This document shows, in pieces, positions 19,393 to 63,895 of a stretch of DNA of 64,000 bases (the first letter of the stretch is position 1; every line of letters starts with the position of its first letter). Source of the DNA: an uncultured Candidatus Saccharibacteria bacterium (GTDB lineage Bacteria; Patescibacteriota; Minisyncoccia; Minisyncoccales; JANBVM01). The stretch is taken from the NCBI GenBank assembly GCA_964450805.1, contig CAYVDD010000001.1:134595-198594 (forward strand), in the 5' to 3' direction. The notes beneath the pieces were generated by a model. That model saw only the letters and a list, made by a program, of their open reading frames with translations, was not told the DNA's origin and searched no databases. Both the position numbers and the translations under genes were made by a program.

Positions 19393-19791
19393 ATGGAAGA
19401 AATAGAAGAAGAAATCGCTTTTGATTGTGATGGAGTATTGTTAAAGCTACCGGGAATATTCAAAAAATTTCCTTATTTTTTACGAGCAATTTTAAGTTTC
19501 TTTATTGGATATCCTGATGAAGAATTCCTTAAAGCTATAAAAAAAAGAGAAAATATTCTGGTAGTTACAGCAAGACCAAATTTTTTGAAAAAGAAACTAA
19601 AAACAGTTTTAGAGAGTTTTTTAGAGGATAGTTCAGTACAAATAATATTTACAGGAGGAAATAAAAATAAAATTAAAGTCTTAATAAAAATCGGCATTAA
19701 AACTTATATAGAAGATAACAAGAATCTCCGAAAGATATTGAACAAATGTGGAATCTTAGCTTTGTCTCCTAACAAATTTATTAGTTCTTAA
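19393..19791 (+). CDS. Small HAD-like phosphatase-fold protein (hypothetical)
   Basis: IAFDCDGVLL (DxDG motif I), VVTARP (motif II-like), GGAG RBS. Confidence 0.45.
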   Translation: MEEIEEEIAFDCDGVLLKLPGIFKKFPYFLRAILSFFIGYPDEEFLKAIKKRENILVVTARPNFLKKKLKTVLESFLEDSSVQIIFTGGNKNKIKVLIKIGIKTYIEDNKNLRKILNKCGILALSPNKFISS

Positions 19792-21908: not shown

Positions 21909-22682
21909 ATGAGTCCTAAACTTTTTAAACAAAACAATGGTTATGAGATTAATGGTCTGTGGTATCCAAGAGTAACCTCAATTTGTAATATTATTGCAAA
22001 GCCTGGGCTTGAAAGATGGCTGGCTAACCAACCAAGTTTTATTGCTATGGAAAGAAAAAGAAAGAAAATTACTGACTGGGGAATTCTTATTCACAATACA
22101 ATTGAGAAAATACTTTTAAAAGAAAATCCTGAGATTAAACCTAATATCCGTCCTTCAATACTGGCTTTTTTAGACTGGCTTAACAGTAATAAAATTAAAG
22201 TTATAGATATAGAAAAAAGAGTTCTCAGCAAACAGAATGTTTATGCTGGAACGTTTGATGTTTTGGCTGAGATTAATGGCAAGCTTGGAATTTTAGATTT
22301 AAAAACGAGCAAAGAAATATGGGACGACCATTTTATTCAAACCGCAGCCTATTTTAATGCTTATAATGAGAAAAATAAACAAAAAGCAAAAACCCACTGG
22401 ATTTTAAGAATTGACCAGCATCAAAAATGTAAAGTTTGCGGTGCAGAAAAAAGAGATAAGTCAGGAGATATTAATATTAAAGGCGGTAAAAGATTCTGCA
22501 GGCATGTTTTTGATGAGCCGAAAGGGGAATGTGAACTTAAAAAAGTAAAAAATCACAAGCCCTTTATTGATATGTTTTTATCAGCTAAAAAATTATGGGA
22601 GTTTTCCAATAGAAATAAGCTTTCACGTATTGAAAATTATCCCAATATGACAAAAACACATTTAACTCTTTTTAATATTTAA
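21909..22682 (+). CDS. PD-(D/E)XK nuclease superfamily protein (RecB/Cas4-like fold)
   Basis: GTFDVLAEINGKLGILDLKTSK (D...D-L-K core), QTAAY, and the Cys cluster CKVCG...FCRH. Confidence 0.6.
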   Translation: MSPKLFKQNNGYEINGLWYPRVTSICNIIAKPGLERWLANQPSFIAMERKRKKITDWGILIHNTIEKILLKENPEIKPNIRPSILAFLDWLNSNKIKVIDIEKRVLSKQNVYAGTFDVLAEINGKLGILDLKTSKEIWDDHFIQTAAYFNAYNEKNKQKAKTHWILRIDQHQKCKVCGAEKRDKSGDINIKGGKRFCRHVFDEPKGECELKKVKNHKPFIDMFLSAKKLWEFSNRNKLSRIENYPNMTKTHLTLFNI

Positions 22683-44326: not shown

Positions 44327-45679
44327 TTATTCTTCGTAGGTTTTTTCAAGGGTTCTAAAACTTACTCTTCCTTCATCAAAATATAGTTCAACCCTTCCAA
44401 CAGGACCATTACGGTGCTTAGCAATAATTAAATCAGCAATGTTTTTTCGTTCAGTTTCAGGTCTGTATCTGTCTTCCTTATAAATAAACATAACTACATC
44501 TGCATCCTGTTCAATTGTTCCGCTCTGGCGCAGGTCAGATAATCTTGGAATATGAGGAGAACGTTGTTCAACTGCGCGTGATAATTGTGATACAACCAGA
44601 ACAGGAATATTCATTTCTCTGGCTAAAGATTTTAAAGCTCGGGAATTTTCTGATACCTGCTGTACAGGGCTTGTGTATGCATCCATTGGTTCCATAAGCT
44701 GCAAATAATCAATTATAATTAAACCCAGTCCCTTTTTAGTTTGAAGCCTTCTGGACATTGCTTTCATCTGCAAAACATTAGAGCACAATGAATCGTGAAT
44801 ATAGATTGGAGCATCTGATAAAACTGACAGTGATTGCTGGATTCTTGTAAAGTCATTGTCTTCGCCTTCACTTGATAATCTTCCTGTTCTGAGCCTCCAT
44901 AAATCAACTCCAGAAATACTTGAAATTAATCTGTCAATTACCTGGTCTTTTGACATTTCCAAAGAAAATATTCCAACAGGAATTTTTTGTTCAACTGCAA
45001 TATTATAGGCAAAGTTTAATGCTAAAGCGCTTTTTCCTAAACTTGGTCTGGCAGCTAAAATTATTAGATCAGATTTCTGAAAACCAGCTAAAAGATTGTC
45101 TAAATCAGCAAGTCCGCTGGCAAGACCTCTTAAACCTCCTTTATGTTTTGATAATTTGTCAATTCTTTCAAAAGCTTGTTCTAAGTCGTCTTTTACTAAT
45201 ACAAAATCTTGAGATAAGCTTTTCTGGGCAATACTGAAAATCTTTCTTTCAGCTTTATCCAAAAGAACATCAGTCTCTTCTTTTTCTTCATAACCCAATT
45301 GGCCTATTTCATGTGATGCATTAATTAAATCCCTTAAAACTCTTTTTTTGTTAACTATTTTGGCGTAATTAAAAACATTGGTTGGAGTAGGAACAGTATT
45401 TATTAGTTCAGTTAAATATGCATTTCCACCTATTTCTTCAAGAATACCTTTTTCTTTTAATCTGTTTGAAACTGCTAAAAAATCAATTACATCATCTTTT
45501 TCAAAAAGCTCTAAACAAACCCTGTAAATTTCCTGATGAATTCGTTTGTAAAAGTCTTCGGGCTTTAAAAAATCAGCAACTTTAATAATTGTTGATTTAT
45601 CAATCATTAAGCATCCTAATACTGATTGTTCAGCTTCAATGGATTGAGGCGGTAATTTTTCTGGTAGTTGATCAGCCAT
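44327..45679 (-). CDS. dnaB: Replicative DNA helicase DnaB
   Basis: The start MADQLPEKLPPQSIEAEQSVLG was chosen. Walker A ARPSLGKSALALN, IIIDYLQLM and QLSRAVEQR. Confidence 0.92.
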   Translation of the reverse strand: MADQLPEKLPPQSIEAEQSVLGCLMIDKSTIIKVADFLKPEDFYKRIHQEIYRVCLELFEKDDVIDFLAVSNRLKEKGILEEIGGNAYLTELINTVPTPTNVFNYAKIVNKKRVLRDLINASHEIGQLGYEEKEETDVLLDKAERKIFSIAQKSLSQDFVLVKDDLEQAFERIDKLSKHKGGLRGLASGLADLDNLLAGFQKSDLIILAARPSLGKSALALNFAYNIAVEQKIPVGIFSLEMSKDQVIDRLISSISGVDLWRLRTGRLSSEGEDNDFTRIQQSLSVLSDAPIYIHDSLCSNVLQMKAMSRRLQTKKGLGLIIIDYLQLMEPMDAYTSPVQQVSENSRALKSLAREMNIPVLVVSQLSRAVEQRSPHIPRLSDLRQSGTIEQDADVVMFIYKEDRYRPETERKNIADLIIAKHRNGPVGRVELYFDEGRVSFRTLEKTYEE

Positions 45680-45765
45680 GTTTACTTCATTTTTAACATG
45701 AGAAAAGCTAATTGGCAAGAATTCGGCTTTCTTGATAAAATCTTTTATTGAAACAATTTTAAATT

Positions 45766-46989
45766 ATGAAAATAGGATTAGTCACTTTTCATACTTTTTC
45801 CCAGCCAGGCGGAGTAAAAAGGCATATTCTGGATTTGTCAAAAAATCTCAGGGAAAAAGGGCATAAAACAAAAATCATTGTTCCAAGAAGAAAAAGGTCA
45901 GAGAATTACGGCAAGGATGTAATTCTTTTGGGCACTTCTTTTCCAATTGATTTTAGCGGAACCCAAGCTGATCTTGATATTAATTTTAATCCAATATCCA
46001 TTGAAAGAAATTTAAAAAGAGAAAAGTTTGATGTTTTACACCTTCATAATTTTGGCTTTCCTTCAATCTTGCAGATTTTAATCAGTCCTTCAGCTTCAGA
46101 CACTTTAAATGTTTTAACCTTTCATTCTAATATGGAAGGCAGCGGTCTTTTAAAGAATTTCCCTAGTTTTTTGTACCTTTTAAATAAAATCTGTCAGTGG
46201 AAAATAGATGGAGTAATAGGTGTTGCTCCTTTAATTATGAATTATTTTAAAAACTACAAAGGACCTAAAAAAGTTATTTCCAATGGCATAGATCTAGATA
46301 AATTCAACATTAATGTTTCAAAAATAAGGAAATATTGCGATGATAAGATTAATCTTTTATTTGTTGGAAGAATTGAGGAAAGAAAGGGTTTAATTTATCT
46401 TTTAAGAGCTTTTAAGATTCTGAATAAGAGGTTTTCAAATTTAAGATTGATTATAGTGGGTGATGGTCCTTTAGAGCAGGAATGCAAAAGGTATGTTAAA
46501 AATAACAAGCTTAAAGAAGTAATTTTTGAAGGCAGGGTAAAAGGAAATATTGCTCATTATTACAGAACAGCTGATATTTTTATCAGCCCTGCACTTTATA
46601 GAGAAAGCTTTGGATTAGTACTTTTAGAAGCAATGGCTTGTGGAGCACCGGTTGTTGCGTTTGCTAATCAAGGGTATAAAGAGGTTTTAAAGAATAAATC
46701 TTCAGGAAGATTTTTAACAAAACCAAAAGATTACAAATCACTTGCTAAGAAAATAGAGATGCTGGTAAAAAACCCTGGTTTAAGAGAGAAAATTTCCAAA
46801 AAGGGAATTAAAGAAGTAAAACAATATTCCTGGCAAACTGTTACAAACCAGATTTTAGATTTTTATAAAGTCTGTCAAAAATACAAATCTCACAAAAAAA
46901 ACAATGGCTTTTTTTTAGAAAATGCTTTTAAGAAATTATTAACCAAGGATATTTTGGAGTGGCTGGAAAAAATGATTGAAGAAAGTTAA
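45766..46989 (+). CDS. Glycosyltransferase family 4 (GT-B fold)
   Basis: GGVKRHILDL at the N-terminus, and ESFGLVLLEAMACGAPVVA (the EX7E region). Confidence 0.8.
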   Translation: MKIGLVTFHTFSQPGGVKRHILDLSKNLREKGHKTKIIVPRRKRSENYGKDVILLGTSFPIDFSGTQADLDINFNPISIERNLKREKFDVLHLHNFGFPSILQILISPSASDTLNVLTFHSNMEGSGLLKNFPSFLYLLNKICQWKIDGVIGVAPLIMNYFKNYKGPKKVISNGIDLDKFNINVSKIRKYCDDKINLLFVGRIEERKGLIYLLRAFKILNKRFSNLRLIIVGDGPLEQECKRYVKNNKLKEVIFEGRVKGNIAHYYRTADIFISPALYRESFGLVLLEAMACGAPVVAFANQGYKEVLKNKSSGRFLTKPKDYKSLAKKIEMLVKNPGLREKISKKGIKEVKQYSWQTVTNQILDFYKVCQKYKSHKKNNGFFLENAFKKLLTKDILEWLEKMIEES

Positions 46990-48398
46990 AATTTTTTTAC
47001 TTTTGATCCTTTTTCAGTATCCTCAACCTTATATCCCATATCTTTAATTTGTTTTCTTAATTGGTCAGATTTTTTCCAATTATCTTTTTTTCTAAATTCT
47101 TCTCTTTTTTTAACTAAATCTTTTACTTTTTGAGGAATTTTTATTTCCTTTATTCCTTTTAAATTCAAACCAAAAACCTTATCAAAATCTAAAACAAGCT
47201 TGTATTTGTCCTTATTTGATATGTTTTTATCTTTAATTAAGTCCCACATTAAAGCTAAAGCTTTTGGCATATTTAAATCATCACTAATAGCTTTCAAAAA
47301 ATTCTCTTTATAAAGCTGATTTTTTTTATTGCTTTTAGTTATTGGCTTTGTGCTATGTGTTTTTATTTCTATCAGTCTTTCATATAAATTCTCTAATGCA
47401 TTCTGAGCCGATTCCAAAACTTTCCAAGAAAAAGTAAGCTTGGAGCGATAATGAGCATTAAGTGTTAGATAACGATAGGCAAGAGGATTAAATCCCTTTT
47501 TAATTAAATCATTCAGAATAATAATATTTCCTTCTGATTTTCCCATTCTGCCTTGTTTCAAAATTAAAAACTCTCCATGGAGCCAGATTCTTACTACTGG
47601 ATGATTATATGCGCCAATGTTCTGAGCTCTTTCATTGGTGTGATGGACTGGAATATGGTCAATTCCTCCGCAGTGAATATCAAATTCTTTTCCTAGATAT
47701 TTTATGCTCATTGCTGAACATTCAATATGCCAGCCTGGAAAACCCTTGCCCCAGGGAGAATCCCAGTTCATAATATGGTTTTTGTGTTCTCCAACAAGTT
47801 TTAACCATAAAGCAAAATCTCTTGGATTTCTTTTGTCAGTTTTTTTATCAACACTGATTCCTTGCTGCATTCCTTTTAAATCCAGCCTTGCTAGCTCTGG
47901 ATATTCTTTTAATTTTGAAGTATCAAAATATACTGCTGAATCAGTCTCATAAGCATAGCCATTTTTAAAAAGTTTTTTAATTATGTTAATTTGCTCTTTA
48001 ATGTGTTTTGTTGCTTTACACCAGATATCTGGCTCTATAATATTTAAATTTTTTAAATCTTTTTTGAAAGCTTTTGTATAAAAATCAGCTATTTCTAATA
48101 TTGATTTTTCATTCAATTCTTTTCCTTCTCTTTTTAAAGCTTTTATCATTTTATCTTCTCCGCTATCAGCATCAGAGGTTAAATGGCCTACATCAGTAAT
48201 ATTCATTACGTGTTTTACTTTATAGTTGTTGTATTTTAAGACTCTTTTTAAAATGTCTTCAAAAAGATAGGTTCTTAAATTTCCAATATGTGGGAACCAA
48301 TAAGCTGTAATGCCGCAAGTATAAAGTCCAACCCTTGCTTTTTTTAATGGCTTAAAGACCTCTTTTTTACGAGTTAATGTGTTGTATAGTTTTAACAT
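46986..48398 (-). CDS. cysS: Cysteine--tRNA ligase
   Basis: HIGNLRTY (HIGH), the CGGIDHIPVHH zinc site and RMGKSEGN (KMSKS). Confidence 0.92.
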   Translation of the reverse strand: MLKLYNTLTRKKEVFKPLKKARVGLYTCGITAYWFPHIGNLRTYLFEDILKRVLKYNNYKVKHVMNITDVGHLTSDADSGEDKMIKALKREGKELNEKSILEIADFYTKAFKKDLKNLNIIEPDIWCKATKHIKEQINIIKKLFKNGYAYETDSAVYFDTSKLKEYPELARLDLKGMQQGISVDKKTDKRNPRDFALWLKLVGEHKNHIMNWDSPWGKGFPGWHIECSAMSIKYLGKEFDIHCGGIDHIPVHHTNERAQNIGAYNHPVVRIWLHGEFLILKQGRMGKSEGNIIILNDLIKKGFNPLAYRYLTLNAHYRSKLTFSWKVLESAQNALENLYERLIEIKTHSTKPITKSNKKNQLYKENFLKAISDDLNMPKALALMWDLIKDKNISNKDKYKLVLDFDKVFGLNLKGIKEIKIPQKVKDLVKKREEFRKKDNWKKSDQLRKQIKDMGYKVEDTEKGSKVKKF

Positions 48399-48549
48399 AG
48401 ATTATATCTGGGTCTATTATAGTAAATTTTGACTGTTTGACAAAATTAAGAAATTTATTACACTGAAAAACATTATATAATTTAATAGGACTTTTAAAAA
48501 AACACAATAAAAATAAGTGATGTAATTGAGCAGAGAAAGTCTATCCACA

Positions 48550-49413
48550 ATGGATAGATTATGTCCTGAATGTGGCGATCAATCTCTAATAAAAAAAGAC
48601 GGTCAAACCGTTTGTAAAGAATGCGGTTTTGTGGTTTCATATAAAGAAATAGATTGCAAGGGAGGTACAAGACAAAAAGACGATGTTCCAAAATATCCTG
48701 TGAGCGTTATGGGTTATAATAAAAAATTAGGGAGCTATATTGATAGAAGAAATATTGATTCTTCAGGAAAAGAAATTATTCCTAAAACGCAGCTCACAAT
48801 AACAAGGTTACGAAATTATGATAGCAAATTCAAAAGTAGTGAAGAAAGGAAGCTACAAGCTGCAATGGTAGAGTTTAATCAACTTCTCCGTGAAATCTCA
48901 CCTGAAATTAGAATCACAAATACGTTTAAAAAAGAATTTAAGTTCTTTTTTAAAAAAGTTTTAGAAAAAGTTAGTGTTATCGGTAGAAGCTATAAGCTAC
49001 TGGGAGCAGCTACTTTTTGCTTTCTTTATAAGAAAAAAGGAAACCCAAATCCGATAAAACAAATTTCGAAGCTCACTAAAATCGCATTGGGATCTATTTT
49101 CAGACAGTATAGGAATTTGACTAGAATATTTGAGCAAAAGAAGCAACCTCAAAGCTTTGTAAATTATATTTCTAGTGTATCAGCAACTATAGGTATTTCT
49201 ATGAAAACTCAAAAAACAGCATTAGAGATATTTGCTAAGATAAAAAAAGATTTTTCAGGTAAAAGCATAAAAGGGGTAATAGCAGGTCTTTTATATCTTC
49301 TTTGTAAGATTAATGGAGAAGAAAAAACACAAGAAGAAATAGCAAAAGCCAGTAGTGTAGCTGTAGTGACATTACGAAGTCGACTCAAAGATTTAATTGA
49401 AAAAGATTTATAA
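48550..49413 (+). CDS. TFIIB/TFB-like protein (N-terminal zinc ribbon + linker + two cyclin-like repeats)
   Basis: MDRLCPECGDQSLIKKDGQTVCKECGFVV is a TFIIB-type Zn ribbon. SGKEI...RLRNYDSK...EERKLQAAMVEFNQL parallels the B-linker (RLRKWQ...ERNL). GRSYKLLGAATFCFLYK...IFRQYRNLTRIF and GKSIKGVIAGLLYLLCKINGEEKTQEEIAKASSVAVVTLRSRLKDL parallel cyclin repeats 1 and 2. The match is colinear with archaeal TFB. Confidence 0.75.
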   Translation: MDRLCPECGDQSLIKKDGQTVCKECGFVVSYKEIDCKGGTRQKDDVPKYPVSVMGYNKKLGSYIDRRNIDSSGKEIIPKTQLTITRLRNYDSKFKSSEERKLQAAMVEFNQLLREISPEIRITNTFKKEFKFFFKKVLEKVSVIGRSYKLLGAATFCFLYKKKGNPNPIKQISKLTKIALGSIFRQYRNLTRIFEQKKQPQSFVNYISSVSATIGISMKTQKTALEIFAKIKKDFSGKSIKGVIAGLLYLLCKINGEEKTQEEIAKASSVAVVTLRSRLKDLIEKDL

Positions 49414-49512
49414 AAAGAGCTAATAGTCTATAGTTCTCTTTTTTTTATTTAATAAATATAATTTTAATGTTTTTTACTTTGATTTCCCTTAAATTTATGA
49501 TAATATGGCTTA

Positions 49513-54228: not shown

Positions 54229-54358
54229 ATAATCAAATATAGAATTGAATATAATTGTATAGAGAATTGCCAGAAAGGCGATTCTAGTGCTCGGTATCGG
54301 GAGACCGAGACGCGTCACATGTGTTATAATAAAAAAGATTATTAAACCTAAAATAATT

Positions 54359-55258
54359 ATGCAAAATAAAGCCTTTTCTAAAATATTAGTTTTAATTATT
54401 CTCGTTGTTATCATTAGTGGAGGGATTTTGATTTCTCAGAAAGTATCACCAGTGGCCGCACTTGATGAGTCAAATCCCTGGCTATTTATTCCAGTTGGTG
54501 ATGATTACATGGTAATCCATGAAGGACAATCAGGGATTGTTGAATATAAAGAGGGGACAAAAATTCAAGTAAATGGTTTTAATCTCGGTAAGGTTGAATT
54601 TCGGGCTACTTCCATAGAAGGTGAGGAAAATATTCTAATAGGAACTGCTGTAAAAAGAGAGAAAGCATATCTGGAAGAAAAAGGAGAGTCTTGGTTTTTT
54701 ACTTTTCCCTCTAACCAAACTATATCTAATCTTCTAGCCATCGCCTTTGATTCAAAAGGAAATGAAGCTGGAAGAATTAATTTTCCGTATTTTGAGAATG
54801 TCACAAAAGAAGAAAGGGAAGAAATTGCTAACTGGAAAACTTATAGCAACGAAAAATATGGATATGAGATAAAATATCCAGCTCATTATACAGCAAAAGA
54901 ATCTGACCAAGGAAAGAGTTTAATTATAGGAACCCGTGTTATATATTGTTACAGTATTTCAATCACAGAAAATGTTTCTTCTTTGGAAGAATTAAAATCT
55001 TCATGGCAGGATTCATTTGATGAATTACTTGGAAAATCTCCTAAACGTCCAGAAATAGAAGTAACCTGGAAAGACACATTGGTTTCCGGGGAAAAAGCAA
55101 TAGAGAGGAGTTATGAGCAGTTTATTGGTGGATACACGGGCATCACTCATTCCACCGGCGTTATAAAAGATTCTACCGCTTATGGAATTAAGTTACAAAA
55201 TGGTTCGGAAGAAGAATATTATAAAATCCTTTCTACTTTTAGTTTTTTGGTATTATAG
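54359..55258 (+). CDS. Hypothetical N-terminally anchored/secreted protein
   Basis: The start MQNKAFSKILVLIILVVIISGGIL (signal anchor) was chosen. A TGtTATAAT promoter lies at about 54327-54335. Confidence 0.5.
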   Translation: MQNKAFSKILVLIILVVIISGGILISQKVSPVAALDESNPWLFIPVGDDYMVIHEGQSGIVEYKEGTKIQVNGFNLGKVEFRATSIEGEENILIGTAVKREKAYLEEKGESWFFTFPSNQTISNLLAIAFDSKGNEAGRINFPYFENVTKEEREEIANWKTYSNEKYGYEIKYPAHYTAKESDQGKSLIIGTRVIYCYSISITENVSSLEELKSSWQDSFDELLGKSPKRPEIEVTWKDTLVSGEKAIERSYEQFIGGYTGITHSTGVIKDSTAYGIKLQNGSEEEYYKILSTFSFLVL

Positions 55259-57282: not shown

Positions 57283-57431
57283 TTTTTAAATTATTATTAA
57301 TTTTTAAAATTTATTTTTTTAAAAAACAAAAAACTAATAAATGAGGGAATGAAAAAGTTTTATGCCCTCTTATTTTTTTTAAAAAAAGATTGATTTTTGA
57401 GATTGATTTAGATAATATAAAAAACAATCAT

Positions 57432-57887
57432 ATGTCAAAATATCTAACCCTAGAAGGGCTGAAAAAAGTAAAAAAAGAATTGGATTACTTAATAAATGTG
57501 GAAAGAAAGGAGATTGCAAAGAGGATAAGGCATGCTGCTTCTTTTGGCGATCTTAGTGAAAATGCTGCTTATGATGAAGCAAAAGATGCCCAGGGATTCT
57601 TAGAAGAAAAAATCCGCAGATTAAAGAAAGTCTTGTCTCAAGCTCAAGTAATAAAAAAAGAAAAGAGCGGAAAAGTACAGATTGGCTCTATAGTTTATCT
57701 AAAATCAGAAAATAACAAAAAACAAAAATTCCAAATTGTAGGATCAGAAGAGGTTGATATTATGAAAGGAAGAATATCTCAAGAATCACTTATAGGAAGC
57801 GCTCTCTTAGGTAAATCCAAAGGAGAAAAGATAAAAATTAAAACACCTGAAGGAAAAATAGAGTATGAAATTCTTGAAGTTGAATAG
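57432..57887 (+). CDS. greA: Transcription elongation factor GreA
   Basis: MSKYLTLEGLKKVKKELDYL...FGDLSENAAYDEAKDAQ and the C-terminal FKBP-like domain. The ATG at 57432 was chosen. Confidence 0.9.
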   Translation: MSKYLTLEGLKKVKKELDYLINVERKEIAKRIRHAASFGDLSENAAYDEAKDAQGFLEEKIRRLKKVLSQAQVIKKEKSGKVQIGSIVYLKSENNKKQKFQIVGSEEVDIMKGRISQESLIGSALLGKSKGEKIKIKTPEGKIEYEILEVE

Positions 57888-57927: not shown

Positions 57928-60855
57928 ATGGACTCATCATTACTCAATAATTTAAATCAACAGCAGAAACAAGCGGTTATTCATGACAAAGGACCGCTTT
58001 TAATTGTAGCAGGAGCTGGGACAGGTAAAACCACAGCTATTACAAAAAGAATTGCTTATTTGATTGAGCAAAAAAAAGCTAAACCAGAAGAAATTCTAGC
58101 AGTTACTTTTACTGATAAAGCAGCTGGTGAAATGGAAGAAAGAGTGGACAGGCTGCTGCCTTATGGATATATAGATTTGTGGATATCAACTTTTCACTCT
58201 TTTTGCGAGAGAATCTTAAGAGAACATGCTTTAGATATTGGTCTGTCAACTGATTTTAAATTATTAGACCCTACAACAGCCTGGATGCTGATTAACCAGA
58301 ACTTAGAAAAGTTTAACCTTAATTATTATCGTCCCTTGGGAAACCAAACCAAGTTTATCCATGCTTTAATAAGTCATTTTTCCCGCTGTAAAGACCAGGG
58401 TATTTATCCCCAAGATTATTTAAAATATGCAGATAGTTTGAAAACTAATCTTACTGATTTAAAAGAATCCAAGGAAACAGAAAGATTAAAAGAAGTGGCT
58501 GGAGCTTATCATGTTTATCAAAGGCTGCTTTTGGAAAACAATTCTTTGGATTTTGGAGACTTGATTAATTATTGCTTAAAGCTGTTCCAGGACAGACCTC
58601 TTATTTTAGACAAATTCAGAAATAAGTTTAAATACATTCTGGTTGATGAGTTTCAGGATACTAACTGGGCTCAATATGAATTAATTAAATTATTAGCTTT
58701 GCCTGAAAATAATCTTACGGTTTGCGCTGACGATGACCAGGCAATTTATAGATGGAGAGGCGCTTCTTATAACAACATTATTCAATTTCAAAAAAACTTT
58801 CCAAAAACAAAAGAAATTTTTTTAATTGAAAATTATCGTTCAACTCAAAACATATTAGATTTATCATATAAATTCATTAAAACTAATAACCCAAATCGTC
58901 TGGAATATATCAGTAAAATAAGTAAGAAATTAAAAGCTAATAAAACAGGCGAGGGGATTATAGAGCATTTACACTTTAAAGATTTATATGAAGAAACACA
59001 GGGAGTGATTAATAAAATTGCTGACATAGTTAAAGAAAATAAAGATGTTTGTTTTGGTGATTTTGCAATCTTAGTCAGGGCTAATAATCATGCCAATGCT
59101 TTTACCAGAGCTTTAGAAAGAGCTAACTTTCCTTATCAGTTCTTAGCATCCAGAGGATTGTATTCTAAAACAGTTATTTTAAATATAATTTCTTATTTCA
59201 AGCTCTTAGATGATTACCATGAAAGTCCTGCTTTATACAGAATTCTGAATCTTCCTTTCTTAAATATTCCAACAAAAGATATTGCAAAGATCAACCAGTA
59301 TGCCAAGCGTAAAACAAAATCTTTATACGAAGCTTTAAATGAGCTTCCCCTCATACACGGTGTTTCTCCTTCATCTGGACAAGCAGTTAATTTGATATTA
59401 AGCCTGATTAAAAAACACACTGAATTATCTAAAAATAAAAATGTTTCAGAGGTTTTAGTTTCGTTTTTAAAAGATTCAGGTTATCTGAAATACTTATCAG
59501 GCAAAGAAAACAAACAGCAAATAGATTTAATCAATCAGTTTTATCAAAAAATAAAAAATTTTGAAGAAGTTAATATAGACGCTTCTCTTAAAAGCTTTAT
59601 GGAAAGTTTAAATATGGAGATTGAATCAGGTGAACAGGGTAAGATCAGTTTTGATATAGAGCAAGGTCCGGACATGATCCGGGTTATGACCATTCATTCA
59701 GCTAAAGGTCTGGAGTTTAAGTATGTGTTTTTAGTTAATCTGGTTGACAGAAGATTTCCAACTTCACAACGTAAAGAACCGATTGAAATACCAGAAAATT
59801 TAATTAAAGAAATTATTCCAGAAGGTGATGTTCATTTAGAAGAAGAAAGAAGGCTTTGTTATGTAGCAATGACCAGAGCTAAAGAAAAATTATTTTTAAC
59901 TTCTGCTGATAATTATGGCGGAGTTAGAAAGAAAAAACCTTCCAGATTTTTAATGGAAATGGGTTTTATTAAAAAGGGCGATGAACTGATTGCAAAAAAT
60001 ATAGAGTCAGTTGCTGTGAGAAAACAGAAGAAAAAAATAACTGTTCCTTTAAATTTACCCCCTTATCTTTCATTCTCGCAAATAGCAGCTTTTGGAAAAT
60101 GTCCTTTGCAGTATAAATTTGCCCATATATTGAAAATTCCAATAAGAGGCAAGGCAGTGTTTTCATTTGGAAAAGCAATCCACAACACCTTATATGATTT
60201 TGTAAGACTGACTGACAGCGGAAAGAATGCTGTTCAGTCTGCTTTATTTGGAACAGATAAACAAAAAGAACAAAAAACAGGAAAAAAAGTTTTAAACCTG
60301 TCTGATTTAGTTGAATTGTATAAAAAAAACTGGATTGATGACTGGTATGAATCAAAAAACCAGAAACAAGAGTATTACAAATTAGGCCAGAAAATAATTA
60401 AAGATTTTTATGATAAATTTATTCAAGAACAACCTAAAATCTTCAGGATTAATAAAGAGCCAGCCTTAGAAGTACAGTTCAGATTTAAGACAGCTGGCAA
60501 CACCTTATTTGGCAAAATAGACAGAATAGATGAAATTAAAGATGGAATTGAAATAATAGATTATAAGACCGGGAAATACAAAGAAAAATTATCTTCTGAA
60601 GATAAACAACAGCTTTTAATCTATCAGATGGCAGCTGAACAGGCTTTGGGTTTGAAGCCTGTAAAACTTAGTTATTATTATTTAGAACAAGGCAAAAAAA
60701 CTTCATTTTTGGGAAGCGAGCAGGATAAAGAAAATCAAAAACAAGAGATAACAGCTATAGCTAAAAAGATAAAAAACAGCAGTTTTGATGCTAATCCAGG
60801 CTGGCAATGTAAATTTTGTGATTTTCAAGATATTTGTGATTATGCTCAGAAATAA
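57928..60855 (+). CDS. UvrD/PcrA/AddA-type ATP-dependent helicase fused to a C-terminal PD-(D/E)XK (Cas4/RecB-like) nuclease domain
   Basis: AGAGTGKT, VDEFQDTN, TIHSAKGLEF and YVAMTRAK helicase motifs. The C-terminus has CPLQYKF ... IDYKTGK ... CKFCDFQDIC (iron-sulfur-type Cys). Confidence 0.85.
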   Translation: MDSSLLNNLNQQQKQAVIHDKGPLLIVAGAGTGKTTAITKRIAYLIEQKKAKPEEILAVTFTDKAAGEMEERVDRLLPYGYIDLWISTFHSFCERILREHALDIGLSTDFKLLDPTTAWMLINQNLEKFNLNYYRPLGNQTKFIHALISHFSRCKDQGIYPQDYLKYADSLKTNLTDLKESKETERLKEVAGAYHVYQRLLLENNSLDFGDLINYCLKLFQDRPLILDKFRNKFKYILVDEFQDTNWAQYELIKLLALPENNLTVCADDDQAIYRWRGASYNNIIQFQKNFPKTKEIFLIENYRSTQNILDLSYKFIKTNNPNRLEYISKISKKLKANKTGEGIIEHLHFKDLYEETQGVINKIADIVKENKDVCFGDFAILVRANNHANAFTRALERANFPYQFLASRGLYSKTVILNIISYFKLLDDYHESPALYRILNLPFLNIPTKDIAKINQYAKRKTKSLYEALNELPLIHGVSPSSGQAVNLILSLIKKHTELSKNKNVSEVLVSFLKDSGYLKYLSGKENKQQIDLINQFYQKIKNFEEVNIDASLKSFMESLNMEIESGEQGKISFDIEQGPDMIRVMTIHSAKGLEFKYVFLVNLVDRRFPTSQRKEPIEIPENLIKEIIPEGDVHLEEERRLCYVAMTRAKEKLFLTSADNYGGVRKKKPSRFLMEMGFIKKGDELIAKNIESVAVRKQKKKITVPLNLPPYLSFSQIAAFGKCPLQYKFAHILKIPIRGKAVFSFGKAIHNTLYDFVRLTDSGKNAVQSALFGTDKQKEQKTGKKVLNLSDLVELYKKNWIDDWYESKNQKQEYYKLGQKIIKDFYDKFIQEQPKIFRINKEPALEVQFRFKTAGNTLFGKIDRIDEIKDGIEIIDYKTGKYKEKLSSEDKQQLLIYQMAAEQALGLKPVKLSYYYLEQGKKTSFLGSEQDKENQKQEITAIAKKIKNSSFDANPGWQCKFCDFQDICDYAQK

Positions 60856-61544: not shown

Positions 61545-62366
61545 ATGCTTATGAATTCTAAAGATATTGTTATTTTAATAGCTGTTAGTGTTTTAATATT
61601 TTTTATTTATAACGAGATATTTCTTTCTGCTCCTAAGGTCTTTGACCCTCTTAATACTGCTTATATAATTGAACATGAATCATATACCTTAAGAGATGGA
61701 AAATCAGAAAAAGAAATTATCCCTGGCTCAGCAACAAAAATTAAAACAATGGCATGGGGCAAACCTGCAATAGGGGATTTAAATGCTGATGGTGCTGATG
61801 ATGCTGCTTTGGTTTTGGTTCATGACCCAGGAGGCAGTGGAACATTCTTTTATATAGCAGCTGCTTTAAGAAATCCTGAGACAGGACAAGCTGTTGGCAC
61901 AAATGCAGTGCTTTTAGGAGATAGAGTGGCACTGCAAAATATTTCTGTTTATGAAGGAAAAGTTGAATTAAATTATGCTGATAGATTTCCATGGGAACCA
62001 TTTTCTGCACAACCATCAGTTGGAAAAACAAAGATTTTAGAGATTAAGAATAATGAACTGAAAGAAATTAACAGGCCAATTTTATCACAGGCAACTGCTG
62101 ATTCTTTAATTAAAGAAGCTTGGGGAGACTGTACTTTAGATGTTTGTGAGAAATTAACAATAAATAAATTAGATGGAAAAGATGGTGTTTGGTTTATAGA
62201 AGCTATTTATGACGGATTAAAAGATGACTCAGTGCGAGCCAGGAAAAAGATTGCCAATGTTCATTATGTAAATGATGCTTGGGAATTAGGAACAACAATA
62301 ATTGATGAGCATAAATGCCAGCCAAACCGCGGACATCAGGATTTTTCTGACGAACTTTGTCTTTAA
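61545..62366 (+). CDS. Hypothetical N-terminally anchored extracytoplasmic protein
   Basis: TM helix IVILIAVSVLIFFIY and the FG-GAP/VCBS-like GDLNADGADDAALVLV. Confidence 0.5.
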   Translation: MLMNSKDIVILIAVSVLIFFIYNEIFLSAPKVFDPLNTAYIIEHESYTLRDGKSEKEIIPGSATKIKTMAWGKPAIGDLNADGADDAALVLVHDPGGSGTFFYIAAALRNPETGQAVGTNAVLLGDRVALQNISVYEGKVELNYADRFPWEPFSAQPSVGKTKILEIKNNELKEINRPILSQATADSLIKEAWGDCTLDVCEKLTINKLDGKDGVWFIEAIYDGLKDDSVRARKKIANVHYVNDAWELGTTIIDEHKCQPNRGHQDFSDELCL

Positions 62367-62866: not shown

Positions 62867-63895
62867 TTAGTCTTTTAACTTTTTACCACTATGAAATTTA
62901 CGGTGAATGTTTCTCAGGCGCTTACTTGTTACATGAGTATAGATTTGGGTTGAAGTAATACTTCTGTGACCTAAAAACTCTTGAATAGTTCTTAAATCAA
63001 CACCTTGGTTTAAAAGGTCAGTTGCCATGGAATGCCTAAGTGTGTGCGGAGTAGTAAAAACAGGAATTCCAGCTAAAACTGCATACTTCTTAACTAATCT
63101 CTGAATGGAACGAGAGGTGAGTCGACTATCTGATCCTTTCTTGGCTCTATAATGAATGAATAGAGCTTTTTCTTTATCTTTACGTGAATCTAAATATTTT
63201 TTAATCCAACTCAATGCTCTTTCTGAAAAATACACTGTTCTAGCAGATCCGCCTTTGCCAATAACTGAAAGTTCTAAGTCTTTCTTTTTTTTGATATTAT
63301 AGAATTGCTCTTTGTTCAAAGCAACAAGTTCTGCAATTCTCAAACCTGTTGAAAATAATGACTCTAAAATAACCTTATCTCTTAAGCCAATTCTGGTGTT
63401 ATGGTTAGGGGATTTTAAGAACTTTTCAATCTGTTCTAAGTTAAGGAATTTAATGGCTTTATCCTTTTTAGCGTCCTTGGGAAGCTTTATCTTGTCTGCA
63501 GGCAATGATTGTATGTCTTTGGCTGAAAAATAGCTTAGAAAGGCTCTGAGAGCGATAAGATAGTAGTTCTGGGTGATTTTCTTTAAGTTCTTGCCTTTAT
63601 TAGTGTTAAAGCGGGATAGGAATAAGCGATATTTCCATACATTATCAGCTGTAAATTGATGGGGTAGTAATTTTTCATTTTTTGTCTTTTTCAGCCAAAA
63701 TTCAAACTTATTTAAATATCTCTTATAATTCTCCTGGGTTTTATTAGACAAACCTTTCTCAACTTCACAATAATCTAAAAAATCAAAAATATGGCTTATT
63801 ATTGGTGTCTTTGATTTTTTCATTTTTTTAAGGATTTTAGGGAAGTGGTCTAATTTATATATACTAAACGTCGCTTTACCATCATTGTGCGACAT
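62867..63895 (-). CDS. Tyrosine recombinase / integrase (XerC/XerD-like)
   Basis: N-terminal SAM-like domain, then RDKVILESLFSTGLRIAEL (catalytic R), HTLRHSMATDLL (HxxR) and LGHRSITSTQIYTHV (H...Y). Confidence 0.88.
   Translation of the reverse strand: MSHNDGKATFSIYKLDHFPKILKKMKKSKTPIISHIFDFLDYCEVEKGLSNKTQENYKRYLNKFEFWLKKTKNEKLLPHQFTADNVWKYRLFLSRFNTNKGKNLKKITQNYYLIALRAFLSYFSAKDIQSLPADKIKLPKDAKKDKAIKFLNLEQIEKFLKSPNHNTRIGLRDKVILESLFSTGLRIAELVALNKEQFYNIKKKKDLELSVIGKGGSARTVYFSERALSWIKKYLDSRKDKEKALFIHYRAKKGSDSRLTSRSIQRLVKKYAVLAGIPVFTTPHTLRHSMATDLLNQGVDLRTIQEFLGHRSITSTQIYTHVTSKRLRNIHRKFHSGKKLKD

Follow-up and report, generated by a model that had tools for sequence, protein, structure and literature searches.

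Introduction

TFB and TFIIB mark the archaeal-eukaryotic transcription apparatus; bacteria rely on sigma factors. The ribbon, reader and linker of TFB fill the regions of RNA polymerase (RNAP) that correspond to sigma regions 4, 3.2 and 2, and homology between TFB and sigma has reportedly been argued in one published study. Departures from the canonical archaeal factor, with a B-reader or core that has degenerated or is missing, are known from the TFB paralogues Pyrococcus furiosus TFB2 and Sulfolobus TFB3; conservation of their B-reader (B-finger) is poor, but both are retained and functional. Proteins of archaeal or eukaryotic type also occur in bacteria: the eukaryote-like proteins of Legionella represent host-derived effector mimicry, and bacterial histones are archaeal/eukaryotic-type DNA proteins that have been domesticated. 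Our literature search turned up no publication that connects TFIIB, TFB or TBP with CPR, Patescibacteria or Nealsonbacteria.

Here we describe a TFB/TFIIB-family gene in a 64-kb stretch of patescibacterial DNA, referred to as the window. Its product has the same domain order and length as archaeal TFB (Pyrococcus, 1D3U/1AIS) and eukaryotic TFIIB, and has in common with them a Zn ribbon, an RLR/EER linker, two five-helix cyclin repeats and a helix-turn-helix (HTH) of the pattern T-x-R-x-R-x-K. Unlike its archaeal and eukaryotic counterparts, the window gene is bacterial and driven by a sigma70-type promoter, the GPEWRAF motif is absent from its product and several cyclin-1 positions have been replaced.

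Results

Coordinates refer to the forward (+) strand of the window unless stated otherwise. The coding sequence occupies 48550..49413, and we confirmed the ORF described by a first-pass annotation of this DNA, which runs from an ATG at 48550 to a stop codon at 49411-49413 and encodes 287 aa. The same annotation had proposed that the product is colinear with TFB/TFIIB over its full length and had suggested HMM and structural comparisons as checks, and the proposal is borne out by Pfam, NCBIfam, PDB-sequence and fold matches. The Pfam TFIIB repeat (PF00382) matches two stretches above its cutoff (E=3.6e-15, 56 bits versus 23.6), of which residues 198-284 are the strongest, and Zn_Ribbon_TF (PF08271) matches at E=4.2e-5, under its gathering score. 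NCBIfam NF001658 ('transcription initiation factor IIB') aligns residues 3-285 with positions 14-305 of a 312-position model at E=2.9e-40, with a score of 138.3 bits that lies under the curated cutoff of 384 bits; by this comparison the window protein is homologous to the model but highly divergent. The Pyrococcus TFB core (1D3U/1AIS) is matched at E=1.5e-16 with 26% identity over 187-197 columns, and human TFIIB across residues 5-279 at E=8e-13. An AF2 model contains 5+5 cyclin helices at pLDDT 74-94, and the top 32 Foldseek matches against the PDB are all TFIIB, TFB or Brf. Judged by these matches, the ORF encodes a genuine, full-length but partly degenerate member of the TFB/TFIIB family.

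We next compared its motifs with those of 14 family members and with a reference of 244 other TFB-family matches of 270-345 aa, assumed to be mostly archaeal, which may itself include patescibacterial members, since P0018, P0019 and P0023 group with the CPR forms. Against this reference, the Zn-ribbon Cys, RLR, GK, Y249, TQ and VTEVT.R.R.K motifs are kept, and EWR..F is lost together with several cyclin-1 positions. The Zn ribbon (residues 5-28; 48562..48633) has all four Cys (C5, C8, C22 and C25) and reads C5-P-E-C8 ... C22-K-E-C25-G-F-V-V, so that the motif reported by the first-pass annotation is present with a CPECG-CKECG spacer of 12 residues rather than the 14 it gave. These Cys columns are conserved in 13-14 of the 14 family members, with Zn-ligand Cys missing from P0154, P0009 and P0006. 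The annotation had further recognised a B-reader/linker-like segment, and here the linker holds and the B-reader does not: GPEWRAF is replaced by KGGTRQKDDVPKYP, and residues 36-60 (48655..48729), which stand in place of the archaeal B-reader, are modelled at pLDDT <50 and evolve at a dN/dS of ~1. Just 0-2 of the 14 family members match the archaeal E-W-R..F columns. By contrast, the B-linker equivalent (residues 61-100; 48730..48849) retains G61, S62, I64, D70, G73, R86-L87-R88-N-Y and E97-E-R-K-L of the pattern G-L-x-T-x-I ... D..G ... RLRKWQ ... ERNL, includes an AF2 helix at residues 78-92 and keeps its archaeal-conserved columns in 9-13 of 14 members; the quoted segments SGKEI, RLRNYDSK and EERKLQAAMVEFNQL are all found in the protein.

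Cyclin-like repeat 1 (residues 101-195; 48850..49134) forms five AF2 helices (pLDDT 74-92) and contains the reported GRS motif, here as IGRS. It carries the clade-specific motifs FCFLY and GNPNPI, and the archaeal-conserved residues A131, Y134, L142, R167 and R188 are replaced. Cyclin-like repeat 2 (residues 196-287; 49135..49410) conserves G237, K238, Y249, T260 and Q261, and the pattern reported for it is likewise present (GKS..G..AGLLY...GEEKTQEEIA...V.VVTLRSRLKDL). At its C-terminal end lies an HTH recognition helix (residues 270-284, VAVVTLRSRLKDLIE; 49357..49401), the counterpart of the helix that reads the BRE in TFB/TFIIB (VTEVT[VI]RNRYKEL in archaea), with V273, T274, R276, R278 and K280 present. 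The last four of these residues are invariant or nearly so across the family and agree with the archaeal consensus VTEVT.R.R.K, and the helix aligns with V283-R286 of human TFIIB; by alignment, it is of the BRE type.

The signals around the gene are of a bacterial kind. A sigma70-type promoter lies at 48437..48464, with TTGACA at 48437-48442, a 16-nt spacer and TACACT at 48459-48464, and the arrangement of TTGACA, a spacer of 16-17 nt and TAnnnT is common to all orthologous loci, including those encoding the long forms described below. The first-pass annotation had identified the same -35 but had paired it with TATAAT at 48476-48481, a pairing that is ruled out by spacing because the two elements are 33 nt apart. 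A divergent cysS promoter on the reverse strand (48416..48443; TTGTCA, 16 nt, TATAAT; 11 of 12 matches) has a -35 that overlaps that of the TFB gene, and the block ATTATAAT is conserved across orthologous intergenic regions. Between promoter and Shine-Dalgarno (SD) sequence, the 5'-UTR element CTTTTAAAAAAA (48491..48502; family consensus ~G[TC]TC-TTTAAAA) holds a constant relative position in all orthologous loci as the remaining spacer diverges. We considered TTTAAAA as a TATA-like operator and rejected it, since the motif alone is too frequent in this AT-rich genome: TTTAAAA occurs upstream of 12 of 53 genes, and TTTAAAAA occurs 107 times in 64 kb on both strands. The positional conservation of the element stands. 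An SD-like GTGATG (48517..48522) aligns with the (GGA)GGTGA of orthologous loci. The start codon is probably TTG 48526 rather than ATG 48550, because it coincides with the ATG of orthologues L001 and L008, which include the closest one, and because it lies 3 nt downstream of the conserved GTGATG; ATG 48550 has no SD. The coding sequence would then gain 48526..48549 at its 5' end and the product would be 295 aa, with an N-terminus reading MSRESLSTMDRL instead of MDRLCPECG. Downstream, the terminator previously reported does exist in the form of a hairpin (49416-49437) and a T8 tract (49439-49446; feature 49416..49446), but it is weak, with 7 bp and -6 kcal/mol (z -1.26) ahead of the eight-U run, and a consensus scan of the window did not detect it. 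Composition is native, as had been stated: the GC content of the gene is 0.31 and that of the window 0.315. Its sigma70-type promoter (-35/-10) and Shine-Dalgarno sequence show that the TFB gene has been rewired for bacterial expression.

The surroundings of the gene are bacterial as well, in agreement with the first-pass annotation. Pfam assigns flanking genes to RecR, DnaB, GT4, CysS, GtrA and DnaX, and the window further encodes GreA, L10, L7/L12, MraZ, MraW, an FtsI-type PBP and a Mur ligase. The chromosomal slot (cysS <- -> TFB -> gtrA -> dnaX) is identical on every related contig examined, and slot and a ~20-kb block are common to loci L001, L003-L011, L013, L015 and L017. Three closed Nealsonbacteria genomes (CP179889, CP179890 and CP179891) hold TFB in this slot, the junctions on both sides are identical in contigs from NCBI, JGI, ENA and Logan, and every lineage examined has kept the ORF intact and at full length, with genomes of ~0.64-0.69 Mb (636 kb for that of the window). 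The TFB gene is thus an archaeal-TFB orthologue at a fixed cysS/gtrA-dnaX slot across a Nealsonbacteria-like Patescibacteria (CPR) clade, and it is inherited vertically in the whole of this bacterial clade.

Archaeal genes in bacterial MAGs often represent contamination, and this prior is the only point in favour of a chimeric assembly or of an archaeal (DPANN) fragment placed in the wrong bin, a concern that the first-pass annotation had itself raised. It is opposed by uniform GC, by the bacterial promoter and SD, by a dS equal to that of neighbouring genes and by the recurrence of the same junctions in the three closed genomes and many independent contigs. Because synteny is identical across these contigs and genomes, chimerism is excluded, and together with the equal GC and dS it rules out contamination; bacterial marker genes do the same for a DPANN or other archaeal misbinning, and we regard the chance of any such artefact as vanishingly small. 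A phage or virus origin was also rejected, as a search of IMG/VR found no core-clade relative and the flanks are housekeeping genes.

Is a partner encoded nearby? A phmmer search with the Pyrococcus TBP sequence, verified against 1PCZ, found no match in six-frame translations of the window and loci L001-L014 (278 kb in total), and Pfam models for TBP, TFE and archaeal RNAP found none among the ~50 window ORFs, which upholds the earlier observation that the window encodes no TBP or archaeal RNAP subunit. The genes rpoB and rpoC are located outside the window, and the GreA within it is bacterial-type. These results bear on the idea of a canonical TBP-TFB module, in which the genome would also encode TBP and the pair would work on bacterial DNA. 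In its favour, the basal orthologues appear fully canonical, and the 278 kb searched, comprising the window and ~20-kb loci, compare with a genome of 636 kb. Against it stand the absence of TBP from the window and the syntenic loci, the lack of TBP, TFE and archaeal RNAP domains in the window ORFs and the replacement of reference-conserved cyclin-1 positions in the window's lineage, and we judge such a module very improbable.

Family members were enumerated by an exhaustive HMMER scan; a word-indexed search recovered few of them, with 4 matches for the single protein and 10 for a profile. Two outgroup lineages hold a near-canonical TFB in the same slot (P0012-P0015; L015 and L017). These long-form patescibacterial TFBs share with the window gene their position, their promoter, leader and SD architecture and their family, but they are 428-440 aa in length with a third cyclin-like repeat, whereas the window protein has two, and they retain the canonical GPEWRAF B-reader and cyclin-1 motifs, whereas the window protein is reader-less and degenerate. 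They are 47-52% identical to an Asgard TFB and 31-34% identical to the window protein, and only 39-49% identical among themselves, with GPEWRAF kept nonetheless. The window gene is not an isolated oddity: it belongs, as a derived form, to a family of orthologues that extends across the clade and has near-canonical TFBs at its base.

In a tree of housekeeping genes, the lineages with canonical long forms branch outside every reader-less lineage. Neighbour-joining (NJ) bootstraps of the TFBs support the core clade alone (56/60 and 96/100 replicates); they do not recover the syntenic copies as one monophyletic group, and they group reader-less and core forms in just 3/60 and 5/100. With named archaea included, NJ trees have an unresolved backbone and never recovered an all-CPR clade; we therefore abandoned donor identification by this route and give only the nearest named groups, which are Asgard, Methanomethylicia and Thaumarchaeota and not Methanothrix. 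From these relationships we infer that TFB was captured once from an archaeon, with Asgard and TACK-type TFBs as its nearest named relatives. Basal lineages would have kept a near-canonical TFB (Zn ribbon, GPEWRAF B-reader, linker and two cyclin repeats) with a third repeat, and in the window's lineage the B-reader would have been lost and the N-terminal RNAP-contacting modules would be drifting. Taken together, the identity of the protein and its evolutionary history are close to certain.

We next examined rates of evolution. Between the window and locus L001, dS is 0.52 for TFB and 0.25-0.79 for its neighbours, and dN/dS is 0.395 versus 0.095-0.185, making TFB the fastest evolver of the block at 2-4 times the neighbour rate. 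Regional dN/dS values, each from only 25-95 codons, are 0.58 for the Zn ribbon, 1.04 for the reader-equivalent (25 codons), 0.58 for the linker, 0.37 for cyclin repeat 1 and 0.31 for cyclin repeat 2. These ratios indicate that the gene is under constraint, strongest in the DNA-binding core; purifying selection would be centred on both cyclin folds and on the HTH at the C-terminus, the BRE reader in TFB/TFIIB. Identity between orthologues is 27-44% where genome neighbours share 65-93%. Between the window and L011, TFB shows 34% identity and CysS 54%, compared with 88-89% for neighbours; the cysS-TFB segment has been swapped between close genomes. Such fast evolution and swapping are seen more typically in genes at an interface or in a conflict than in regulators with a housekeeping role.

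The same data speak to two further explanations. One holds that the gene is a relic drifting to loss, which had an ancestral function and now retains weak residual constraint and no specific role. The highest dN/dS of the block, a neutral reader-equivalent segment, a B-reader and some Zn ligands that have been lost, and the gap between orthologue and neighbour identities would all suit a relic. Such a gene would not be expected as an intact full-length ORF in all lineages examined, in genomes of only ~0.64-0.69 Mb, nor to show a dN/dS of 0.31-0.37 in its cyclin repeats and conservation of its recognition-helix residues, promoter and SD, and new clade-specific conserved motifs have arisen in it; we consider a relic unlikely. 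The other is a sigma-like use, in which TFB would have adapted to the clamp coiled-coil and RNA-exit region of bacterial RNAP as an alternative initiation or promoter-specificity factor. TFB modules do occupy the same RNAP sites as sigma regions, the gene is kept in very small genomes where regulators are few, and the new conserved motifs suggest a new partner. However, the N-terminal modules that contact RNAP are the least constrained (dN/dS 0.58-1.04), some members lack Zn ligands, the gene itself, like others in the window, has a promoter of the ordinary sigma70 type, and Pfam finds no match to Sigma70_r2, r3 or r4 in the window protein at E<=10. Adoption by the bacterial polymerase thus seems quite improbable.

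Discussion

Our data lead us to favour, tentatively and at somewhat less than even confidence, the reading that this TFB has been repurposed as a DNA-binding factor acting within the bacterial cell. In this organism the protein would have ceased to serve as a general initiation factor and would instead act as a DNA-bound cyclin-core/HTH factor, either a regulator or an architectural protein. Repeat 1 may provide it with a new surface for a partner (the clade-specific FCFLY and GNPNPI motifs), and autoregulation may run through the TATA-like G[TC]TC-TTTAAAA element of the leader. The intracellular DNA-binding role is the step we favour, and it is unproven.

The main alternative looks outside the cell: as a host-directed mimic, the captured TFB would be used by an ectosymbiont or parasite of archaea on the TBP-promoter complexes of its host, its RNAP, or both. 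Long forms could redirect host transcription, and reader-less forms would be dominant-negative competitors that occupy BRE/TATA-TBP and do not open the promoter. 'Ca. Nealsonbacteria' and related Paceibacteria attach to the methane-producing archaea Methanothrix or Methanospirillum, and hosts bearing attached cells have markedly low ribosomal activity (PMC13293708; PMC10936435; bioRxiv 10.1101/2022.04.20.488981). Both observations are in keeping with a host target, as is the local absence of the TBP partner from the window and loci (278 kb). The basal orthologues keep all partner-contacting motifs, GPEWRAF included, at 39-49% mutual identity, which is expected if archaeal RNAP and TBP remain their partners; retention of GPEWRAF in the long forms is hard to explain without archaeal RNAP and favours a host-directed role in those lineages at least. 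The fastest evolution in the block and allele replacement are what a host-interface gene would show, and a recognition helix and cyclin core kept alongside a lost B-reader match the profile of a competitive inhibitor.

Several features weigh against this explanation. Direct reading of the N-terminus (MDRLCPECG or MSRESLSTMDRL) reveals no hydrophobic leader, and the neighbours are housekeeping genes. To our knowledge no delivery route from CPR cells to the archaeal cytoplasm is known. An archaeal host is extrapolated from other 'Nealsonbacteria' to these 0.64-0.69 Mb genomes, and the nearest named TFBs are from Asgard, Methanomethylicia and Thaumarchaeota rather than Methanothrix. In addition, Zn ligands are gone in some members and reference-conserved cyclin-1 positions are replaced, which speaks against the derived clade's TFBs still docking on the RNAP or TBP of archaea. 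On balance, a host-directed TFB appears possible though rather doubtful, and doubtful too is the specific proposal that three-repeat forms reprogramme host promoters and reader-less forms shut host transcription down.

The repurposed intracellular factor and the host-directed mimic carry different implications for a TFB kept intact over a long evolutionary span in ~0.65 Mb bacterial genomes and under a bacterial promoter. The family spans a series from near-canonical TFB with an intact B-reader to strongly remodelled forms, and this natural series lends itself to asking, by evolutionary dissection, which TFB modules matter without cognate machinery. What may come to light is the way in which a basal factor deprived of TBP and its polymerase is put to another use, or else a molecular weapon or handle by which bacteria parasitise archaea, a kind of parasitism for which we know of no effector. 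The host-directed reading, if true, would provide the first case of a basal transcription factor being mimicked across domains. Recombinant protein and the archaeal in vitro transcription systems already in existence allow a direct test of both outcomes.

Among known systems, the TFB2 and TFB3 paralogues work beside a canonical TFB, TBP and archaeal RNAP, none of which is evident here. In the bacterial cell that carries the gene, the analogous function falls to sigma70 factors, which combine HTH promoter recognition with insertion into the RNAP cleft, but the window protein has no sequence or Pfam match to them and its fold is cyclin-like. Compared with the mimics of Legionella and the bacterial histones, the window TFB has at most a hypothetical link to a secretion system, a translocation signal or a nucleoid role. 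The former offer a precedent for a symbiont that keeps an information-processing protein of its host's domain to act on that host, and the latter for the domestication of such a protein for a bacterium's own chromosome.

A full-length TFB homologue at a bacterial chromosomal locus

The TFB/TFIIB-family ORF at 48550-49413 (+) is intact and comprises 287 codons (residues are numbered from the ATG at 48550). The first-pass annotation had read its product as a full-length homologue of archaeal TFB and eukaryotic TFIIB, and profile searches bear this out: the Pfam TFIIB cyclin repeat (PF00382) matches two stretches above its gathering score (E=3.6e-15), the Pfam TFIIB Zn ribbon (PF08271) matches under its gathering score (E=4.2e-5), and the NCBIfam model 'transcription initiation factor IIB' aligns end to end (residues 3-285 on model positions 14-305 of 312, E=2.9e-40) at 138 bits, far under its curated 384-bit cutoff. 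The protein also matches the Pyrococcus TFB core (1D3U/1AIS; E=1.5e-16) and human TFIIB (residues 5-279; E=8e-13). An AlphaFold2 model built on 11 family sequences (mean pLDDT 73, core 85-94) predicts 5+5 helices along with a small beta ribbon and a linker helix, and all 32 Foldseek PDB matches at E<=1e-3 are TFIIB, TFB or Brf chains; differences in relative domain orientation keep the TM-scores low. Every motif previously quoted is found in the protein, the Cys spacer being 12 residues rather than 14. Overall, the analysis confirms the original finding and supports its interpretation, correcting it on three points: B-reader, -10 element and start codon.

The flanking genes are bacterial, as had been noted, with Pfam identifying RecR, DnaB, a GT4 glycosyltransferase, CysS, GtrA and DnaX next to the TFB gene and RNase III, S16, TrmD, L10, L7/L12, MraZ, MraW, an FtsI-type PBP, a Mur ligase, ClpB, GreA and a UvrD/AddA-like helicase-nuclease elsewhere in the window, which also carries 6 tRNAs. 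Composition matches the surroundings, GC being 0.31 in the gene against 0.315 in the window and flat across the gene. The window's contig is 636 kb long, and the nearest homologue of the protein (P0003, 65% identity) lies in the same gene order in a closed 675-kb genome, CP179890.1, labelled Candidatus Nealsonbacteria by NCBI. This order recurs in CP179889.1 (647 kb), CP179891.1 (695 kb) and independent JGI, ENA, Logan and NCBI contigs as a block of cation ATPase, Trp/Tyr permease, Na/Ca exchanger, RmuC, L21, recR (-), dnaB (-), GT4 (+), cysS (-), TFB, a PALP gene in some, gtrA and dnaX, which is constant in every case save that the permease is missing among the called genes of two loci, L017/L018. 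Since closed genomes and independent contigs share the same junctions, chimerism and misbinning are ruled out, and we assign negligible likelihood to the gene being an artefact.

One of these loci, L009 (CAZEQH010000002.1), is titled 'uncultured Candidatus Saccharibacteria' and has full Nealsonbacteria-type synteny with 89% housekeeping-protein identity to L006; its taxonomic label is probably loose. Near the window end lies a tyrosine recombinase of the phage-integrase family (62867-63895, -), and an ECF-type sigma factor visible in syntenic L011 adjoins an integrase there. ORFs of 132-666 aa without a Pfam match at E<=1e-4 occupy 16002-17192 (-), 17307-19307 (-), 19393-19791 (+), 21909-22682 (+), 54287-55258 (+) and 61545-62366 (+), the first of them directly after rplJ-rplL, where bacteria usually carry rpoB and rpoC. 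A gathering-level Rfam match at 59812-59913 to RF03531 (n00280), a C. difficile sRNA 'included into helicase gene', falls within the UvrD/AddA-like gene (57928-60855) and is most likely due to the conserved coding sequence of the helicase, not to an sRNA.

Three grades of TFB occupy the same slot

HMMER, run exhaustively against 1.84 billion representative proteins, returned 1971 matches at E<=1e-3 and just 6 at E<=1e-30, indicating that the close family of the window protein is small. Context look-ups among matches 2-12 and several lower ones placed P0005, P0009, P0010, P0154, P0030, P0042, P0141, P0014 and P0015 in Patescibacteria in the same slot, between cysS and gtrA. P0004, which adjoins A-type ATPase genes, P0016 (Heimdall/Hodarchaeota) and P0088, which adjoins AGOG, archaemetzincin and NiFe hydrogenase, proved to be archaeal. 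NCBI automatic names ('TFIIB-type zinc ribbon-containing protein', 'transcription initiation factor IIB') note the similarity.

The slot occupants fall into three grades. The long forms (P0012-P0015, 428-440 aa; context checked for P0014 and P0015, with genes at L015:6179-7501 and L017:10001-11287) have a canonical Zn ribbon, the B-reader GPEWRAF in 3 of 4, a linker of the form HDKGL..RLRKWQ..ERNL, RGRS..YAACR in repeat 1, GKSP..TQKEIA..VTEVTVRNRYK in repeat 2 and a third cyclin-like repeat with 40-48% identity to repeat 2; they share 47-52% identity with an Asgardarchaeum TFB but only 39-49% with each other. The second grade, with two repeats and no B-reader, comprises P0042, P0141, P0030 (context checked for these three), P0116, P0011 and P0008, which are 33-40% identical to archaeal TFBs. 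The third grade is the core clade, strongly diverged, to which the window protein, P0001, P0003, P0005, P0006, P0154, P0009 and P0010 belong; among its specific motifs are AATFCFLY and GNPNPI. At L003:5181-7311 and L005:1590-3720 the TFB gene forms a tandem pair, with a 53-aa PALP fragment between the copies and a full PALP gene after them. Upstream in the pair lies P0126, a canonical TFB with 44-45% identity to Asgard TFBs that is no closer to other patescibacterial copies than archaeal TFBs are; it could represent a second acquisition or else an old paralogue that evolves slowly.

The phylogeny that had been proposed gave a divided answer: neighbour-joining bootstraps supported the core clade (56/60 and 96/100), but monophyly of all syntenic copies was not recovered (3/60; reader-less plus core set, 5/100). 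In a midpoint-rooted distance tree of concatenated RecR, DnaB, GT4 and DnaX, the two long-form genomes fall outside all reader-less genomes. Together, slot occupancy, the three grades and this housekeeping tree make a single capture, vertical descent, B-reader loss and then fast divergence the most parsimonious history. An archaeal TFB would have been captured once into the cysS/gtrA slot, fitted with bacterial expression signals and passed down vertically, with the B-reader lost on one descendant branch and rapid divergence following that loss. The named top matches, among which Methanothrix is absent, would place the donor as Asgard or TACK-like at most.

Selection acts on the cyclin core of the fastest-evolving gene of the block

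We audited family motifs against 244 other TFB-family matches of 270-345 aa, assumed to be mostly archaeal, using the columns that show 75% conservation or more in that set. The patescibacterial proteins keep the Zn-ribbon cysteines (13-14 of 14, three members each being without one ligand), linker positions G61, I64, D70, G73 and R86-L87-R88, repeat 2 positions G237-K238, G242, Y249, T260-Q261 and I264-A265, and the recognition helix V-T-E-V-T-x-R-x-R-x-K (R278 in 14/14; T274, R276 and K280 in 13/14 each). In the HMMER alignment V273 and R276 correspond to V283 and R286 of human TFIIB, the BRE-contacting residues. Lost are the repeat 1 positions A131, Y134, L142, R167, R188 and P199 and the B-reader E-W-R..F, whose columns are matched in 0-2 of 14; of the segment annotated as B-reader/linker-like, only the linker therefore stands.

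In all comparisons TFB evolves faster than any other gene of the block: 66% identity against 82-92% for neighbours between the window and L001, 44% against 78-93% between L006 and L009, and 28% against 79-84% for DnaX, DnaB and GT4 (GtrA, 41%) between L010 and L013. Between the window and L001 its dS of 0.52 is unsaturated and the same as that of its neighbours (0.25-0.79), so that this pair diverged in place, with a dN/dS of 0.395 against 0.095-0.185. Regional values, from small samples of 25-95 codons each, are 0.58 for the Zn ribbon, 1.04 for the reader equivalent, 0.58 for the linker, 0.37 for repeat 1 and 0.31 for repeat 2. Purifying selection is thus concentrated on the cyclin core and HTH, the B-reader having been lost; that the gene is a relic drifting towards decay appears improbable to us.

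The window and L011 are otherwise very close (neighbours 88-89% identity, dS 0.26-0.80), yet TFB and CysS share only 34% and 54% identity (dS ~1.1-1.2), which marks an exchange of the cysS-TFB segment between lineages. The clade has two types of cysS, DALR_2 or CysS_C, with identities of 40-83%. The cysS gene (window 46986-48398 and orthologous loci) is phylogenetically discordant, at 40-83% where DnaB and DnaX show 66-89%, and in L010 a 301-aa ORF that faintly matches Phage_endo_I splits it in two. The cysS-TFB segment looks like a hot spot of recombination or replacement, and GtrA too is discordant (35-90%). Inteins interrupt dnaB in L001:4533-7166 (Intein_splicing plus LAGLIDADG, 877 aa) and L011:5437-7215 (Intein_splicing only, 592 aa); the window dnaB (44327-45718, 463 aa) has none.

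Bacterial expression signals

The TFB gene has a sigma70-type promoter on the + strand, with -35 TTGACA (48437-48442), a 16-nt spacer and -10 TACACT (48459-48464). The first-pass annotation had the TTGACA right; the TATAAT at 48476 that it paired with it is 33 nt away, the wrong spacing, and its terminator amounts to only a weak hairpin of 7 bp with eight U after it. At every locus extracted, the region upstream of the TFB orthologue conserves TTGACA, a spacer of 16-17 nt and TAnnnT, together with a G[TC]TC-TTTAAAA element and an SD matching (GGA)GGTGA. The element lies between promoter and SD (window 48491-48502; equivalents in L001, L003, L006-L011, L013, L015 and L017) and stays conserved while the leader around it diverges. 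In form it resembles an archaeal TATA box, but the bare motif is common in this AT-rich genome, which leaves its significance unproven. An in-frame TTG at 48526, which would extend the protein to 295 aa, aligns with the ATG of L001 and L008 directly after an SD-like GTGATG and is more likely to be the start codon than ATG 48550.

The divergent cysS promoter (TTGTCA, 16 nt, TATAAT; 48443-48416, -) has its -35 hexamer on the same 6-7 bp as that of TFB (48437-48443, opposite strands), an overlap suggesting that RNAP occupancy of the two would be mutually exclusive. Upstream of 21909, 36907, 53587, 61545 and other genes, a GC-rich hairpin and T-run precede an extended -10 of the TTGATAAAAT or TGGTAGAAT type that lies only some 10-15 nt from the ATG, without an SD, which suggests that the organism may make very short or leaderless transcripts.

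A putative DNA-binding factor and its rivals

As had been noted, no TBP or archaeal RNAP subunit is found in the window: Pfam detected no archaeal RNAP, TFE or TBP domain among its ~50 ORFs, and Pyrococcus TBP (a query exactly matching 1PCZ) found no match in the six-frame translation of the window and loci L001-L014 (278 kb in total). We consider a resident TBP-TFB module very improbable. GreA (57390-57887) and promoters of the sigma70 type speak for an ordinary bacterial polymerase; a sigma-like role for the protein with that enzyme seems decidedly doubtful. With no cognate polymerase evident, the reader gone and the ribbon and linker relaxed, we infer that this TFB orthologue with bacterial expression signals cannot serve as a canonical initiation factor in its cell. 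The conserved part would correspond to the one that, in TFB/TFIIB, binds promoter DNA together with TBP. We therefore tentatively favour a repurposed, putative DNA-binding cyclin-core/HTH factor acting inside the bacterium, in which repeat 1 may offer a new partner surface and autoregulation may run through the TATA-like leader element.

The main rival is a TFB mimic directed at an archaeal host. The methanogens Methanothrix and Methanospirillum carry 'Ca. Nealsonbacteria' and related Paceibacteria as ectosymbionts or parasites, and archaeal cells so colonised have markedly low ribosomal activity (PMC13293708; bioRxiv 10.1101/2022.04.20.488981; PMC10936435). The characterised DGGOD1a genome is 1.16 Mb, and by analogy archaeal host association may extend to the 0.64-0.69 Mb genomes here. 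A mimic best accounts for the preservation of all archaeal partner-contacting motifs, GPEWRAF among them, in the basal long forms, for the interface-like evolution of the gene and for its retention in a lineage of ectosymbionts of archaea. However, no evidence of export was found, and the derived reader-less proteins fit worse than the long forms unless they are dominant-negative competitors; we rate this possibility as rather unlikely. The finding should surprise transcription and CPR specialists, and its competing mechanisms are directly testable with existing archaeal in vitro transcription systems.

No paper tying TFIIB, TFB or TBP to CPR, Patescibacteria or Nealsonbacteria was found by full-text searches, and to our knowledge this bacterial TFB lineage is undescribed in the searchable literature. 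The window protein belongs to a known family and so is not categorically new. What is new is a bacterial, vertically inherited and bacterially expressed lineage of TFB, together with its graded series from near-canonical proteins with a third repeat to reader-less, fast-evolving ones.
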